Shown here: positions 3,515-8,385 of the stretch, piece after piece
Layout: every line of letters starts with the position of its first letter
How positions within the stretch are numbered: position 1 is the first letter of the stretch
DNA from: an uncultured delta proteobacterium
Lineage (GTDB): Bacteria; Myxococcota_A; Polyangia; Polyangiales; Polyangiaceae
DNA length: 64,000 nt
Assembly: GCA_963716725.1 (NCBI GenBank)
Contig: CAVQUB010000012.1
Location: 256,001 to 320,000, forward strand
Direction: 5' to 3'
Notes under the pieces: generated by a model
Seen by the model: the letters and a program-made list of their open reading frames with translations, nothing else
The model's database searches: none
Told to the model about the DNA's origin: nothing
Translations under genes and position numbers: made by a program

Positions 3515-3665
3515 GCAGGCCCACCCAAGGACCGCTGGCCTGGCCAGACGCGCAGCATGCGTTGGACGATAGTCGTGCCCATCCGCCCAAGGCCAGCGCG
3601 TCTGGTTGGTCTGACCTTGGAAGACGGGCCCTCCGACGGACGGAGCGGCCACGGGAGGCCCGACG

Positions 3666-4250
3666 ATGGCGGCACGCAGAGACGATTCGATGCTGTTCTC
3701 GCTGCAAGGGCTCTCGCCTGCCGATCGGCAGCGCGTCGAGCGAGAGCTTCGTCAACACCGGCTCGCAGCGGCCGCCGCAGCCGCTCGTGCCGAGTCGAAG
3801 CGTCAGGCCGACCTCGAACGAGGGCGTCTGGCCGGCGAAGAAGCCGAGCGGCAACGGGAGGCCGAGTTCCAAGCTCGAGCTGCGATCGAGAGAGCGCGCG
3901 CCGAGTTCGAGTCGCGGGCCAAGGTCGAGCTGCTCGAGCTGCAACACGCCCACGAGCGTCGGATGCGGGCGCTCGAGAGCCGGGGGCAGCGCGGCAATCA
4001 AGTCGCCGCTCTGGGCCTGGTCGTCGCCATGGTGTGTGTGGTGGGGTCGCTGGGGTTCTACCTGGGCAAGGTGCGGCCCGAGACCGCCCGGGTGCAACGT
4101 GCCTACGACACGTTGGTTGCGGCGGAACGTCATCGCGCCGAAGAAACCAAGCGCATGCTCGAGAAGAGCGAGAGGCGACGGGCGGAGCTGGCGACGGAAC
4201 TCCAAGTCGCGCGGCGACGCATCGACGCGCGGGAGGGCGGCTCAAAGTGA
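3666..4250 (+). CDS. Coiled-coil membrane-anchored hypothetical protein
   Basis: N-terminal DSMLFSLQGL, long E/R/A-rich coiled coil, single TM (ALGLVVAMVCVVGSLGFYL), second coiled coil. Confidence 0.65.
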   Translation: MAARRDDSMLFSLQGLSPADRQRVERELRQHRLAAAAAAARAESKRQADLERGRLAGEEAERQREAEFQARAAIERARAEFESRAKVELLELQHAHERRMRALESRGQRGNQVAALGLVVAMVCVVGSLGFYLGKVRPETARVQRAYDTLVAAERHRAEETKRMLEKSERRRAELATELQVARRRIDAREGGSK

Positions 4251-5396
4251 GAGCACGACCTCCGCTCCGAGGTCGACCTCGCAGCGCGTGACATGCTCCA
4301 GCAAGAGCTCGACGCGGGCGTCGACCGCAGCGAGTTGTGACTTGCCGAGGATGGGCGCCATGGGATCGGCCGCGAGCGTCTGCGCCAGCCTTGCCCCGAG
4401 TCGCTCGTCCACCGGGGCTGCGGGGCCGAGTGCTCGCAACGCGTCGACGGTCGCGCGGCGGAAGCGACAGAGCGGCGCGAGCCGCTTCGAGTTGTTTTCG
4501 CCCCGGCTCGACCGCCAGGGGGCGAAGGCCGACGCATTGTCGAGAAAGATGAGCGCGCCGCCGCCGAGCGAGAGCACGTTGCCACCGGACCAACGATCCG
4601 TGTTGTCGATCAAGAAGTCGAAGACCATCAAGTCGCTCCACTCGGGTAGCCGCTTGGAGAGCTCCTCTCGAAGGGGCTCCTTCGATCGCAGCCCCTCGGT
4701 CCAGTCTTTGGGCGGCTCGGCGCTGCTCAATCGGCCGGCGTGCCACGCGATCATCGCACCGCTCACGCGTCCGTCCCGCGCCGTGACCTCGTCGCGAAAG
4801 CGCTGGATGAACTTCGGGTCGGCGTTCGACGCCTCGAGGTGGTCGATCAAGTGCGGATAGCCGATGGACCGACCCGCGACGGCGGCGGTCCGTGAAAACC
4901 CCACGATCCGATCGAGGTGATAGGCGGCGATCTCTGCCCGGAAATTCGAGGCCGAGTGCTGCTGCTCCGGCTTGAACACGGCGCGGCTGCCGTCCTCGAA
5001 GCGGACGCGCAGCGTGATGGTGGCGCCACCAGGGTTTTTCACGATCTCGGTGATGGGCGCGCTCGCGAGGCGCGTGACCCAAGCCTTGTCTTTGCCCGCA
5101 TCTACCGGACCGCTGAAGCCCGCGTGGGCTGAGCTCGATGGACGGGGCAGGTGGCCGACGAGGGCCGCCGGTGCGCCGGGCGCCCGCTCCGGCGCGGGCT
5201 TCATCCGAGGCGCGCTGCTTGCGGAGGGGGCCGGCGCGGGGCCGCCCTCCGACGGCTCCGTGCGCGGCGCCGGGGCCGATGCTGTCGCTTCGGCGCCCCG
5301 AGCGCGCAGCGTCGTCGCCTCGGGATCGGCTGTAGGTGGCTCGCGGCGCTCGCACCCGAGCACGAGACCCAGGAGCAGGACCGGCCGCCAGCGCAT
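4242..5396 (-). CDS. Fam20C/Four-jointed-like secreted atypical kinase, lipoprotein
   Basis: Lipobox LVLGC; PGGATITLRVRFEDGSRAVFKP, AEIAAYHLDRIVGF, DLMVFDFLIDNTDR, FLDNASAF match Fam20C-family kinase motifs. Confidence 0.75.
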   Translation of the reverse strand: MRWRPVLLLGLVLGCERREPPTADPEATTLRARGAEATASAPAPRTEPSEGGPAPAPSASSAPRMKPAPERAPGAPAALVGHLPRPSSSAHAGFSGPVDAGKDKAWVTRLASAPITEIVKNPGGATITLRVRFEDGSRAVFKPEQQHSASNFRAEIAAYHLDRIVGFSRTAAVAGRSIGYPHLIDHLEASNADPKFIQRFRDEVTARDGRVSGAMIAWHAGRLSSAEPPKDWTEGLRSKEPLREELSKRLPEWSDLMVFDFLIDNTDRWSGGNVLSLGGGALIFLDNASAFAPWRSSRGENNSKRLAPLCRFRRATVDALRALGPAAPVDERLGARLAQTLAADPMAPILGKSQLAAVDARVELLLEHVTRCEVDLGAEVVLSL

Positions 5397-5447
5397 GCGC
5401 GCATATTTTCACATTTGGGCGCGTCGAGAGCGGATAGTCTCTGCCGG

Positions 5448-6548
5448 GTGCGAAGACTGGCTCGCGCGCTCGCTCTGGTGGCCGTGGCAGCGGCACTGCC
5501 GCAGGCCAGCGCGCGCACCGAGCCTCTGCCGCACGCGCCGCGACCCGTGGCCGAGGCGTCCGCCTACAGCGGGCCGGCTGCGACGGTGACGGATGCGCCG
5601 CCACCCAGGGTCGTCGAGGTCGAACCGGTCGGCGAACGTGTCTCCCTCGACGCGCCCTTGGTCGTGCGCTTCGAGGCGGACATGGTACCCGGTAAGATCG
5701 TCGAGCTAACGCCGGACGTTCCCGGCGAGGGTCGCTGGCTGAACGCCAGGACGTGGTCGTTTGCTCCGAAGCGCTGGCGCCCCGGTCGGCCGCAGCGCGT
5801 CCGCGTCGCTCCGCCCGGGGGCGAACCGGTCGAGTGGTCGTTCCGCGCCCGCGTGCCGATGCCCATCGCTCCCGCACCCGGTGAGGGCGCGCGTTTGATC
5901 CTGAGCTTCGATGACGGGCCCAACGATCGCCGTCAGGCCGATCGGCTGCTCGACCGTCTGAAGGAGCTCGGGATCCGGGCGCTCTTCTTCCCCTCCGGGC
6001 GTTGGGCCAAGGCGCGTCCCGATTGGGTGCTGCGCGCGCACGACGAAGGCCACCGGGTGTGCAACCACACCTTCAGCCACCCGAACCTCACGGCCCCCTG
6101 GATGACCGAGGCGAGGATCACCGACGAGATCGCCCGCGGCGCCGGGGACGGTGAGTGCAAGCTCTTCCGGCCGCCCCTGATGGGAGTGGACGGCCGGGTC
6201 GAGCGCATCGCAAAGTCCCTCGGCCTCGAGGTGTACCTCTGGGACATCGACAGCCGAGACTGGGAGGGCGGGCCCGCCGAGGACCTGCTCGCCACGGTAC
6301 TCGGACGCGCGCACCCCGAAGCCGTCGTGCTCTTCCATATCCACGCCGCCGCGACCTTCGAGATCCTGCCCGCCCTGGCCGAATCACTGCGCAAGGCGGG
6401 CTACGTCCTGTCGTGGGACCCCAAAGACGCTCCCGGAAGCCATGTAGGCGCGGGTGGGAGAACTGAATGGGGCGCCCTTCGAGACCGTCCCACAGATGCG
6501 GAAACCCCTTCAGCTGACCAGGATCTGCCCGGGCTTGGCCCACCCTGA
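5448..6548 (+). CDS. Secreted polysaccharide deacetylase (CE4/NodB) with N-terminal Ig-like domain
   Basis: LSFDDGP, NHTFSHP, FRPP, WDIDSRDW and LFH NodB motifs; signal peptide from GTG 5448; Big_5-like VVRF..GEGRWL..WSF segment. Confidence 0.85.
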   Translation: MRRLARALALVAVAAALPQASARTEPLPHAPRPVAEASAYSGPAATVTDAPPPRVVEVEPVGERVSLDAPLVVRFEADMVPGKIVELTPDVPGEGRWLNARTWSFAPKRWRPGRPQRVRVAPPGGEPVEWSFRARVPMPIAPAPGEGARLILSFDDGPNDRRQADRLLDRLKELGIRALFFPSGRWAKARPDWVLRAHDEGHRVCNHTFSHPNLTAPWMTEARITDEIARGAGDGECKLFRPPLMGVDGRVERIAKSLGLEVYLWDIDSRDWEGGPAEDLLATVLGRAHPEAVVLFHIHAAATFEILPALAESLRKAGYVLSWDPKDAPGSHVGAGGRTEWGALRDRPTDAETPSADQDLPGLGPP

Positions 6549-6669
6549 CGGCTGGCTGCTAGAGTTCGAGTCCCGAGAATCGATGGAAGATTCCGGGAAG
6601 TTCTTCGTAGCAGTAGATGGGGCGCCCGCCGCCTGCTTCATTGCTTAGGGAACAAGGAGAGACCGGATC

Positions 6670-7590
6670 ATGCACAAACTCATCGCACCCTTCTTGATCG
6701 GCGCGGCCGCCTTCGCGGTGCCCATGCTCGTTCCGTCCACCGCTCACGCCGGGCTCGAGGCGTGCGGCGATATCGAGGTCAGCGCCAAAGGCGAGTGCAA
6801 AGCGGAAGTGTCCGGCGGCTGCACCGCCAAGTGCACGCCCATATCGTTCAAAGCACAGTGCGCAGCCGAAGGCTACGTGACGTGTGATGGCGGTGAGTGC
6901 AAGCTCGAGGCCAGTGCGGAGTGCACCGCAAAGTGCGACCTGAGCGCTTGCGAGGCCAAGTGCAAGGTGACGCCAGCCGAGTTCGACTGCGAAGCAAACT
7001 GCAGCGCCGGTTGCGATGTCGACTGTTCGGGGAACTGCGACGCGAAGTGCGGCACCGACTCCGAGTGCAAGTCGAGCTGCCAAGCGTCCTGCAAGGCGAC
7101 GTGTTCTGGCGAGTGCAAGGGCAGTTGCACGGGCACGCCGGCGACCGCAGATTGCAGCGCCAAGTGCCAGGGAAGCTGCAAAGGTCAGTGCTCGGCAAAG
7201 ACGAACTTCCATTGCCAAGTGGACTGTCAGTCGAAACTGGAAGCGAGCTGCTCGTCCAGCCTCAAGGGCGGCTGCGAGGCGCAATGCCAGAAGCCCGAGG
7301 GTGCGCTGTACTGCGACGGGCAGTACGTCGACAAGGACGGCAACTTTCAGGATTGCTTCGACGCTCTGACCCAGTGGAAGGCGCGTATCGACGCCAGCGC
7401 CACCGGTAGTGCGACCTCGGAGTTCAAGTGCGACTCGAGCGGCTGTTCGTTCTCAGCCGAGGCCGAAGCCGAAGCCGAAGCCTCCTGCGCCACCGCTCCC
7501 GGTCCGCGCGCCGGCGGCGCTGCCTTCGCGTTCGGCGCGTTCGGCTTGCTCGCCGCCTGGGCCCTCGGCCGCCGTCGCCGCAGCGAGTAA
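6670..7590 (+). CDS. Cys-rich secreted protein with MYXO-CTERM-like sorting signal
   Basis: Signal peptide ending AHA; about 37 Cys, mostly in CxxxC runs; C-terminal SC..GGAAFAFGAFGLLAAWALGRRRR; AAGGAG RBS. Confidence 0.8.
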   Translation: MHKLIAPFLIGAAAFAVPMLVPSTAHAGLEACGDIEVSAKGECKAEVSGGCTAKCTPISFKAQCAAEGYVTCDGGECKLEASAECTAKCDLSACEAKCKVTPAEFDCEANCSAGCDVDCSGNCDAKCGTDSECKSSCQASCKATCSGECKGSCTGTPATADCSAKCQGSCKGQCSAKTNFHCQVDCQSKLEASCSSSLKGGCEAQCQKPEGALYCDGQYVDKDGNFQDCFDALTQWKARIDASATGSATSEFKCDSSGCSFSAEAEAEAEASCATAPGPRAGGAAFAFGAFGLLAAWALGRRRRSE

Positions 7591-7653: not shown

Positions 7654-8385
7654 TCAGCCCTCCTTCTTCTTCTCGGGCTTGTCGCAGCGAATCGAGCCCT
7701 CGGCGTTGCAGGTCGTTCCGGTCTTGCACTCTTCGTCGATGACGAACTTGCCGCCCTTGCAGACCACAATGCTGCTCTTGTCGAGGTTGCAGGCGTGTTT
7801 GCCTTCCATCTCGGCGGTGCACGGATCCTTGTCGCGGGCCACGGACATGTCACAGCCGAGCTTCCCGCCTTCCGACTTGCAGCCACCTGGGCCCAGGCAG
7901 TGAAACTCGAGCGTCATCTTGCCGTCTTTGCAGGCTAGGTACTGCTTGCCGTCCACGCTGCACGCCTTGGTCTTGTCCGCCTCGCGACATGCGTCGCCCG
8001 GTTCGGCGACGGACAGGTCACAGAGCGGACGGCCGTCTTCGGTCTCGCAGCCCTTCGGCCCGCGGCAGGTGGTGGCGACGAACTTCCCCGACGTGCACAC
8101 CAGCTTGGTCTTGGCGTCCGTGCAGGCCGATGCGCCCTCCTCGTCGGTGGAGCAAGCGTCGCCTGCTGCGTTGCCCGTGATGTCGCACGACACCCCCGTC
8201 GGCGAGAGCCCACAGCCTCGTGGACCCTTGCAGGGGGCCTGGATGTAGCTCCCTTTCTGGCAGATGAGTTGGCTCAGTTTGTCGACGCAGCGCGCCTCGC
8301 CCTTGTCGCAGGAGCTGCCCGGACTGGGCTTGCAGGCGGACAGGAGGGCGACGACGAAGACCGAGGCGAAGGTGGTGATGCGCAT
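7654..8385 (-). CDS. Cys-rich repeat lipoprotein
   Basis: Lipobox LLSAC; three CxGPxGC-containing repeats of about 55 aa plus a degenerate fourth. Confidence 0.8.
   Translation of the reverse strand: MRITTFASVFVVALLSACKPSPGSSCDKGEARCVDKLSQLICQKGSYIQAPCKGPRGCGLSPTGVSCDITGNAAGDACSTDEEGASACTDAKTKLVCTSGKFVATTCRGPKGCETEDGRPLCDLSVAEPGDACREADKTKACSVDGKQYLACKDGKMTLEFHCLGPGGCKSEGGKLGCDMSVARDKDPCTAEMEGKHACNLDKSSIVVCKGGKFVIDEECKTGTTCNAEGSIRCDKPEKKKEG

Follow-up and report, generated by a model that had tools for sequence, protein, structure and literature searches.

The closest described systems are the animal Fam20 proteins: the glycan kinase Fam20B, the secretory protein kinase Fam20C and the pseudokinase Fam20A. 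The basal Fam20 enzymes of animals are glycan kinases (PMC5865150). FAM20 is called eukaryote- or Metazoa-specific in the available text of PMC9758233, the survey described in PMC5865150 was limited to animal genomes, and the accessible part of a 2021 Fam20 review (PMC7948968) holds nothing on bacteria beyond one cited title. CotH has been named as a distant bacterial relative of Fam20C (PMC7821199, PMC12189002). Here we describe a Fam20-family protein encoded on the minus strand at 4242..5396 of a 64,000-nucleotide stretch (the window) of contig CAVQUB010000012.1, from an uncultured myxobacterium of the Polyangiaceae. It belongs to a large, unstudied Fam20 family in one class of myxobacteria, and it seems to work outside the cytoplasm, which is puzzling since bacteria are not thought to have adenosine triphosphate (ATP) there.

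The animal subfamilies differ in loops and insertions that PMC5865150 describes in detail. Four disulfides are conserved (Cys207-Cys222, Cys212-Cys215, Cys267-Cys340 and Cys341-Cys400 in hmFam20). Fam20B holds its galactose-xylose (Gal-Xyl) substrate in a pocket formed by T114, Q115, Y148-E149-G150-Y151, Y214, Y253, H301 and K321; its Kbeta3-Kalpha3 loop supplies the sugar-binding Y-E-G-Y residues and an acidic partner of the Lys. In Fam20C the same loop carries a D/N-F/H-F-Y-F-S/T-D motif, and the subfamily is further marked by C-D/S-Y-Y-C, an Arg after DN and dimer elements. A second, Fam20-specific acid, Glu213 in ceFam20 and Asp152 in hmFam20, is Gln in the pseudokinase Fam20A (all PMC5865150).

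Family, export signal and active site

Profile, sequence and fold comparisons make it well supported that the protein is a true Fam20-family homolog. Pfam PF06702 (Fam20C) matches residues 229-376 at 59.1 bits against a cut-off of 26.8 (E 6.2e-16), and at E<=10 Pfam returned nothing beyond this family and a weak, sub-threshold FAM198 match, with neither CotH nor HipA present. In NCBIfam no family rose above noise, and no HipA model appeared at E<=10. A phmmer search of the PDB found Fam20C (3.4e-17, 65.9 bits), Fam20A (4.4e-17) and Hydra Fam20 (5.8e-16), which together with zebrafish Fam20C and C. elegans Fam20 were the only matches with E<1. A profile made from an alignment of 98 bacterial homologs (A1) matched human Fam20C in a single stretch spanning both lobes (E 4.2e-39, 138 bits) and Hydra Fam20B at 109 bits; its best non-Fam20 chains had E 0.02 or worse, type II phosphatidylinositol 4-kinase (PI4KII) standing at 0.12. 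The nearest clusters in the ESM Atlas were all bacterial and named "hypothetical protein".

The predicted structure places the protein in the same family. An AlphaFold2 model made with alignment A1 reached a mean predicted local distance difference test score (pLDDT) of 91.2 and a predicted template modelling score of 0.84, and was uncertain only at residues 1 to ~64. Foldseek ranks 1-28 were Fam20 chains without exception (best E 4.6e-15). VIA-align superposed residues 86..384 on zebrafish Fam20C (DrFam20C) with Z 27.7 and a root-mean-square deviation (rmsd) of 2.6 A over 284 residues, with Hydra Fam20 at Z 27.6, human Fam20C at 27.0, Fam20A at 26.8 and C. elegans Fam20 at 26.1; overall, Fam20 structures spanned Z 26.0-27.7 and rmsd 2.6-3.0 A over 274-284 residues. 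Outside the family, Z fell to 16.6 for PI4KII, 14.4 for CtkA and 11.2 for HipT. A wide search independent of Foldseek put the next family after Fam20 at Z 15.4, CotH (5jda_A, outside the top 50 of the Foldseek-based comparison) at 11.5 and HipA at 10.8. With no profile match and low fold scores, the protein belongs to neither the CotH family nor the HipA type. A preliminary description, made from the letters of this sequence, had read the gene as a Fam20C-like lipoprotein and named CotH, HipA and PI3/4 kinases as the assignments that would speak against it; the Pfam and fold searches both came out for Fam20, with those families far behind. Its family assignment thus held, and its preference for Fam20C did not: the protein is no closer to Fam20C than to Fam20B, as fold scores leave the two unseparated (Z 27.7 vs 27.6), and the loops that determine substrate are absent.

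The gene encodes an apparent lipoprotein of 384 residues. Its stop codon lies at 4242-4244 and its ATG at 5396 is the earliest possible start, with an in-frame TGA four codons upstream and no alternative start between. A lipobox is defined, after PROSITE PS51257, by [LVI][ASTVI][GAS]C within the first 15 to 35 residues behind a basic n-region. The N-terminus, M-R-W-R-PVLLLGLVLG-C15, has two Arg (R2, R4) in its first seven residues, and residues 5-15 (PVLLLGLVLGC) were scored as satisfying this rule; here and across the family, export signals were judged by such pattern rules. The predicted signal peptide comprises residues 1-15 (5352..5396, minus strand), ending in LVLGC at residues 11-15 with the Cys codon at 5352-5354. 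An Ala/Pro-rich tether follows at residues 16-85 (5142..5351, minus strand), with 20 Ala and 17 Pro within residues 16-100; pLDDT is 50-74 over residues 1-60 and the chain is predicted to be disordered to about residue 64. The Fam20-type kinase domain, delimited by the VIA-align and A1 matches, occupies residues 86-384 (4245..5141, minus strand). Base composition is native: G+C at third codon positions is 0.84, against 0.76-0.89 in neighbouring genes.

Motifs across the domain are collinear with those of Fam20C. In order they are GGATITLRVRFEDGSRAVFKP (residues 123-143), RAEIAAYHLDRIVGFSRTAAVAGR (153-176), DLMVFDFLIDNTDR (255-268), IFLDNASAF (283-291), CRFRRAT (310-316), LAADPMAPIL (341-350), LAAVDARV (355-362) and HVTRC (368-372). 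The preliminary description had listed the open reading frame, lipobox, Pro/Ala linker and these motifs correctly, and the human Fam20C motifs that it cited agree with a residue-by-residue HMMER alignment to chain 5yh3_C.

The active site is, on the alignments, well supported as being under selection. Lys142 (4971..4973) aligns with the FKP Lys of Fam20C, the ATP-binding member of the ion pair, and Glu155 (4932..4934), the alpha-C Glu of AEIAAYHLDR, with the Glu of Fam20C NAEIAAFHLDR. The catalytic loop D267-R268-W269-S-G-G-N273 (4578..4598) aligns with Fam20C MDRHHYE, and Asp286 of LDN (4539..4541), the metal-binding equivalent of the DFG Asp, with HLDNG; all four features lie on the minus strand. 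Of 300 bacterial homologs that cover the whole domain, 294 keep K142 and 292 keep E155 (seven more have Asp there); D260 is conserved in 300, N265 in 298, D267 in 297, R268 in 300, N273 in 298, D286 in 300 and R361 in 300. Selection on catalysis is suggested because K142, E155, D267, N273 and D286 are each kept in 292-300 of the 300, which bears out the Lys, Glu and two Asp named in the preliminary description, and catalysis with ATP by this protein is likely.

A single Fam20 disulfide appears to survive. Three of the four have no counterpart, and the last, Cys341-Cys400 of hmFam20, is matched by Cys310 (4467..4469) and Cys372 (4281..4283), both on the minus strand, the two late cysteines already singled out. 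In Fam20C, Cys310 corresponds to the second Cys of "CC" and Cys372 to the C-terminal Cys (VRDC); beyond the putative lipid-bearing Cys15, the mature protein has only these two cysteines. The two co-vary, being both present in 74 of the 300 homologs and both absent in 223, with one alone in 3. From alignment and co-variation we predict a Cys310-Cys372 disulfide. In the profile alignment, a segment of ~55 residues between the lobes, which holds the other Fam20 cysteines, is absent.

By its aligned residues the protein is neither Fam20B-like nor Fam20C-like, failing both subfamily tests. The Kbeta3-Kalpha3 loop has lost 9 to 13 residues and reads KPEQQHSASNFRAE, and KPEQQHSASNFRAEIAAY stands where the Fam20C loop motif would be. 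The remaining Fam20C marks are missing too, with no Cys-rich insertion and no Arg in DNASAF; the Fam20B pocket is taken up below, where the substrate is weighed. Because both tests fail, the substrate cannot be read from either animal enzyme.

Spread of the family and gene neighbourhood

The bacterial family is large and patchily distributed. The source genome (7.89 Mb in 35 contigs, 84% complete) has a single PF06702 match, at 60.4 bits in the whole-genome scan. In a phylum-wide sample, 46 of 401 genomes matched at E<=0.001, 42 of them over the cut-off, with none among 14 controls; in a class-wide sample, which includes one unpublished genome (G687), 136 of 401 matched and 85 were over the cut-off. 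Within the class the share varies by family (f11 51/67, f2 23/25, f12 11/23, f76 15/71, f13 0/71), with 8 of 33 in the protein's own. At E<=0.001 an exhaustive search gave 781 representative clusters; 304 of these passed E<=1e-10 and 40 passed E<=1e-30. The best 150 of the 781 all score at least 75 bits and have N-termini with a lipobox or hydrophobic segment and few cysteines. Related loci are recorded as Polyangiaceae, Sandaracinaceae and other Myxococcota metagenome-assembled genomes (MAGs). One homolog (P0251), on a 10.3-Mb contig, carries the name Sandaracinus amylolyticus; its presence in a cultured strain makes genetics conceivable.

Export signals recur across the family, and their presence is well supported by N-terminal patterns. 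Under a strict rule, 131 of the 300 homologs have a lipobox, 73 a hydrophobic N-terminus and 54 neither, while 42 are too short; a lipobox or hydrophobic N-terminus is thus found in 204 of 258 assessable homologs, and a signal peptide is plain to see in several of the 54. A C-E/D-R-R-x-P-P stretch after the lipobox also recurs. In a FastTree phylogeny the protein falls within a clade of 75 (support 0.996), 74 of which carry the Cys pair, and this Cys-pair clade has the highest Pfam Fam20C scores of the bacterial family. A sister group numbers 140 and a more distant group 85.

Several relatives depart from the common architecture. In P0199 (759 aa) and P0207 (693 aa) an MFS_1 transporter domain (81.5 and 34.4 bits) forms the N-terminal part and a Fam20-like kinase domain the C-terminal part; an extra hydrophobic segment lies between the two, and P0207 has 13 hydrophobic segments. 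These fusions fit an outside-facing kinase domain, hint at a coupling to export and may point to the route by which substrate or donor gets to the kinase. Compact relatives of ~270-317 aa with hydrophobic, signal-like N-termini lie at about 5600-6700 in each of four loci recorded as Acidobacteriota (L042-L045); they score 79-89 bits on A1 and carry AEIAAYHLDR and FDQLIANIDRN motifs, with "DH" in place of "DN". Because of them, the superfamily extends beyond Myxococcota. Two long forms, P0018 and P0021 (665-671 aa), were set aside as probable gene-calling artefacts rather than real fusions; their N-termini resemble an antisense frame of the neighbouring deacetylase gene (window 5706-6344, minus strand), followed by the Fam20-like gene.

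A carbohydrate enzyme gene often accompanies the Fam20-like gene in the protein's own clade. Across a divergent intergenic region of 51 bp (5397..5447), AT-rich just upstream of the Fam20 ATG and without a sigma-70-type promoter in a consensus scan, lies a gene for a secreted CE4 (NodB-type) polysaccharide deacetylase (5448..6548, plus strand). Its product has a signal peptide and an N-terminal beta-rich region and matches Pfam PF01522 at 75.3 bits; its NCBIfam matches (PdaB, PdaA, NodB, PgdA) are all sub-threshold. A tblastn search places the deacetylase gene close to the Fam20-like gene in 10 of the clade's 15 distinct loci, as its immediate neighbour in most of them. At L023 and L022 it is 2.5-5.3 kb off, with a transporter and a methylase gene, or an insertion-sequence (IS) integrase gene, intervening; the last (rve, L022:3550-4407, minus strand) looks like a secondary disruption. 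Among 41 genomes sampled from the family, Fam20 was over the cut-off in 5, a deacetylase ortholog (E<=1e-20) was present in 5, and both occurred in 4; the two exceptions are 75% and 59% complete. Related genomes are not independent samples, which makes this a lead and not a statistic.

Other neighbours are conserved to varying degrees. A convergent gene on the plus strand (3666..4250), overlapping the 3' end of the Fam20-like gene by 9 bp, encodes a 194-aa coiled-coil protein with a C-terminal hydrophobic segment and no Pfam or NCBIfam family; by tblastn it is also next to the Fam20-like gene in L021, L005, L006, L022 and L025/L007. The Fam20-like gene is set among fatty-acid oxidation genes, and synteny with acyl-CoA dehydrogenase genes is kept in relatives. 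Beyond the deacetylase gene, window 6670-7590 (plus strand) encodes a Cys-rich protein of 306 aa that has a signal peptide and ends in Cys, a Gly/Ala-rich hydrophobic stretch and RRRR, a tail reminiscent of the MYXO-CTERM sorting signal; the protein has no Pfam or NCBIfam match and is conserved beside the deacetylase in L021, L023 and L025. The product of window 7654-8385 (minus strand), 243 aa long, matches Pfam "Bubble protein" (PF09227, 24.3 bits, cut-off 23) in its C-terminal part; homologs bearing a lipobox-like N-terminus occur in the same three loci.

Different companions mark other branches. At seven Sandaracinaceae-type loci (L030, L032, L033, L034, L031, L038, L009) the divergent neighbour is a NAGPA phosphodiester glycosidase (PF09992), often with an IgGFc_binding-domain protein (PF17517) downstream and Hsp33 upstream. 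We rejected NAGPA as a special "eukaryote-like" neighbour, as it is present in 8 of 14 control genomes. Agmatine deiminase-like genes occur at L008-L017, L019, L020, L030, L036, L038, L039 and L041, on the same strand and with some gaps of only 28 to 70 bp; they match PAD_porph, with NCBIfam aguA sub-threshold, and the accompanying CN_hydrolase gene is aguB-like. A separate eukaryote-type protein-arginine deiminase (Pfam PAD, PF03068, 281 bits) is encoded, in a locus recorded as a Myxococcota MAG, upstream of the Fam20-like gene (L029:2801-4786, plus strand), with one called open reading frame on the opposite strand between them.

Proposed function, rival readings and origin

We consider it probable that the protein is an active, extracytoplasmic, lipid-anchored Fam20-type kinase, a stripped-down bacterial form of the family, with a glycan as its tentative substrate. 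In the scheme that we infer for its location, disulfide, catalytic activity, phosphate donor and substrate class, signal peptidase II would cleave the precursor, and a flexible Ala/Pro tether of ~70 residues would link the kinase domain to acylated Cys15. The domain, which the one Cys310-Cys372 disulfide would stabilise, would be located in the periplasm or on the cell surface. The active site appears complete; metal-dependent phosphotransfer from ATP would use the Lys142/Glu155 ion pair, Asp267 as catalytic base and Asn273 and Asp286 as metal ligands. The substrate may be a GlcNAc-type (N-acetylglucosamine) glycan, either secreted or part of the envelope, on which the co-inherited, divergent CE4 deacetylase acts as well. 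Judged by the residues lost, the Gal-Xyl disaccharide of Fam20B is not the predicted substrate, and Fam20C-type recognition is predicted not to be used either. We tentatively prefer a glycan over a protein because carbohydrate enzymes are co-inherited and because the basal animal Fam20 enzymes are glycan kinases. The NAGPA glycosidase encoded divergently at seven loci of a sister clade is a further lead in this direction.

Several observations weigh against this proposal. To our knowledge the periplasm is generally held to lack ATP. The column of the acid that pairs with the Lys holds Ser150 here and no acid in any of the 300 homologs, although loop length differs and the equivalence is uncertain. 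The sugar pocket of Fam20B is not conserved: Trp269 (Trp in 249 of 300) replaces the His after DR, the Y-E-G-Y loop is absent, and neither Lys nor Arg follows DN, the critical Lys giving way to Ser289 in a column that is mostly Ala. In the flanking DNA covered, the deacetylase was not found in 5 of the 15 clade loci (L002, L024, L027, L028, L029), of which L002 and L028 have little such DNA. NAGPA is common in bacteria, as its presence in the control genomes attests, and a large sister group has agmatine deiminase-like and CN_hydrolase (N-carbamoylputrescine amidase-like) genes downstream at 16 distinct loci. Linker-type glycosyltransferases (GT43, GT7C) were not found in the 84% complete source genome; the GT43 search matched no control genome either and is uninformative. 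A look for RNA data over window 3600-6600 found none.

The same enzyme in the same place could instead be a Fam20C-like protein kinase, an alternative that we regard as possible and clearly less likely. It would phosphorylate Ser/Thr of the cell's own secreted or envelope proteins, or of proteins from lysed prey or neighbours, with ATP likewise so supplied, and many relatives do come from predatory or lytic myxobacterial lineages. Fam20C is the best match of the bacterial profile (138 bits; Hydra Fam20B reaches 109), and the general kinase residues are all kept while the sugar-binding residues of Fam20B (PMC5865150) are not. Yet the motifs that define Fam20C, its dimer elements, its loop and its Cys-rich insertion are equally absent, fold scores do not split the two subfamilies, and the neighbouring genes inherited along with it encode carbohydrate enzymes. 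We think it improbable that the protein is no ATP-dependent kinase in vivo and serves as a pseudokinase or binding module, or uses another chemistry or donor, for example of the AMPylation type. Such a role would sidestep the lack of periplasmic ATP, for whose supply outside the cytoplasm the kinase proposal has no explanation, and kinase folds with non-kinase chemistry exist (SelO, SidJ). The Fam20-specific acid, whose loss contributes to the pseudokinase state of Fam20A (PMC5865150), also has no acidic counterpart in the alignment. Against this stand the Lys-Glu pair, catalytic Asp and Asn/Asp metal ligands, which do not show the pattern of a degenerate pseudokinase, and the fact that the alternative chemistries named consume ATP too.

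Two further readings concern where the protein works and where its gene came from. Export was called by pattern rules alone, and in the sister group the gene lies directly upstream of cytoplasmic polyamine-pathway genes; a misread signal, with a cytoplasmic protein, a mis-called start or a cytoplasmic membrane anchor, is nonetheless very unlikely. No start other than ATG 5396 is available ahead of the domain, homologs again show the lipobox and its C-E/D-R-R-x-P-P continuation, co-variation of the Cys pair is what a disulfide in an oxidising compartment would lead one to expect, and the MFS fusion with 13 hydrophobic segments would place the domain outside. That the gene was recently acquired from a eukaryote, or is a eukaryotic contaminant in the assembly, might be suspected from overviews that treat Fam20 as animal- or eukaryote-specific (PMC9758233) and from the animal-only search in PMC5865150. 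It is scarcely credible, and these results already contradict it: base composition is native, the gene is flanked by bacterial genes whose synteny is kept in relatives, the lipobox is bacterial, Fam20-like genes occur in many families of the class, and more than 150 bacterial clusters at 50% identity exceed 65.9 bits, the best score of a solved eukaryotic Fam20 against this protein.

Deeper ancestry is a separate question. It is speculative, and to us rather doubtful, that these proteins are working ATP-dependent periplasmic or surface kinases of which the Cys-pair clade is the closest prokaryotic kin, possibly the donor lineage, of eukaryotic Fam20, with glycan phosphorylation as the ancestral activity. 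In its available text, a 2026 preprint names up to five contributions that Myxococcota may have made to eukaryotic endomembrane functions; FAM20B is one of them, and the phylogenetic signal is described as not always unequivocal. A literature search combining Fam20 with myxobacterial names found only that one-sentence mention and no characterisation of the bacterial clade, and "PF06702" occurred in no paper of the literature searched. Homolog searches with the whole protein, the kinase domain and an alignment of bacterial members picked for Fam20C-like words returned only proteins with bacterial names or none; eukaryotic Fam20 would fall outside the best 150 of the 781 clusters, as the solved ones score at most 65.9 bits. 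Our tree contains bacterial homologs alone and is silent on the direction of transfer.

If these proteins do work as ATP-dependent kinases in the periplasm or at the surface, the family would be a bacterial counterpart of phosphorylation in the Golgi lumen and would imply an unrecognised supply of ATP, or of another donor, outside the cytoplasm. An exported clade raises the question of where its phosphoryl donor comes from. The clade also offers a minimal Fam20 domain for mechanistic work, with one disulfide and no insertion, and makes the origin of secretory-pathway kinases testable.

Comparison with known kinases

The remote kinases share little beyond the fold. PI4KII, H. pylori CtkA and HipA/HipT are the next-best folds (Z 15.4-16.6, 13.0-14.4 and 10.5-11.2); CtkA, going by its PDB title, is also a secreted bacterial kinase. 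All three differ from the Fam20 match in their far lower fold scores and in having no significant sequence match (the best, PI4KII, at E 0.12). CotH is likewise a bacterial atypical kinase of the same broad fold group, but at Z 11.5, against 27 for Fam20, and with no Pfam CotH match at E<=10 in our protein. CotH acts in the mother-cell cytoplasm on coat proteins, not behind a Sec or lipoprotein signal.

Within the animal family, Fam20A shares the fold (Z 26.8) and differs in that the bacterial proteins keep the canonical catalytic set; we found nothing that suggests a partner-activator role. Fam20C (human 5yh3, zebrafish 5yh0, C. elegans 4kqa) is the best sequence and profile match (65.9 and 138 bits), with collinear GG...FKP, AEIAA(F/Y)HLDR, FDFL..N.DR, LDN, C(R)xR and C-terminal Cys. 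It differs in its D/N-F/H-F-Y-F-S/T-D loop, C-D/S-Y-Y-C and dimer interface elements (PMC5865150), all missing here. The protein described here also has Ser at what aligns, with uncertain equivalence, as the Glu213 (ceFam20) position, is ~55 residues shorter between the lobes, is bacterial and is predicted to be lipidated.

Fam20B, represented by Hydra Fam20 (PDB 5xom/5xoo), differs in its His301, here Trp269, in its Y-E-G-Y loop and Lys after DN, in the three disulfides and the insertion that the bacterial protein lacks, and in its Golgi signal anchor, where we predict a lipoprotein anchor. The two agree in fold (Z 27.2-27.6, rmsd 2.7 A over 275 residues, 27% identity), in the catalytic Lys, Glu, Asp, Asn and Asp, in a simple, monomer-type architecture and in the position of the Cys341-Cys400 disulfide. 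Both would also work outside the cytosol: Fam20B acts on a glycan, and a glycan is the substrate that we tentatively propose for its bacterial relative.

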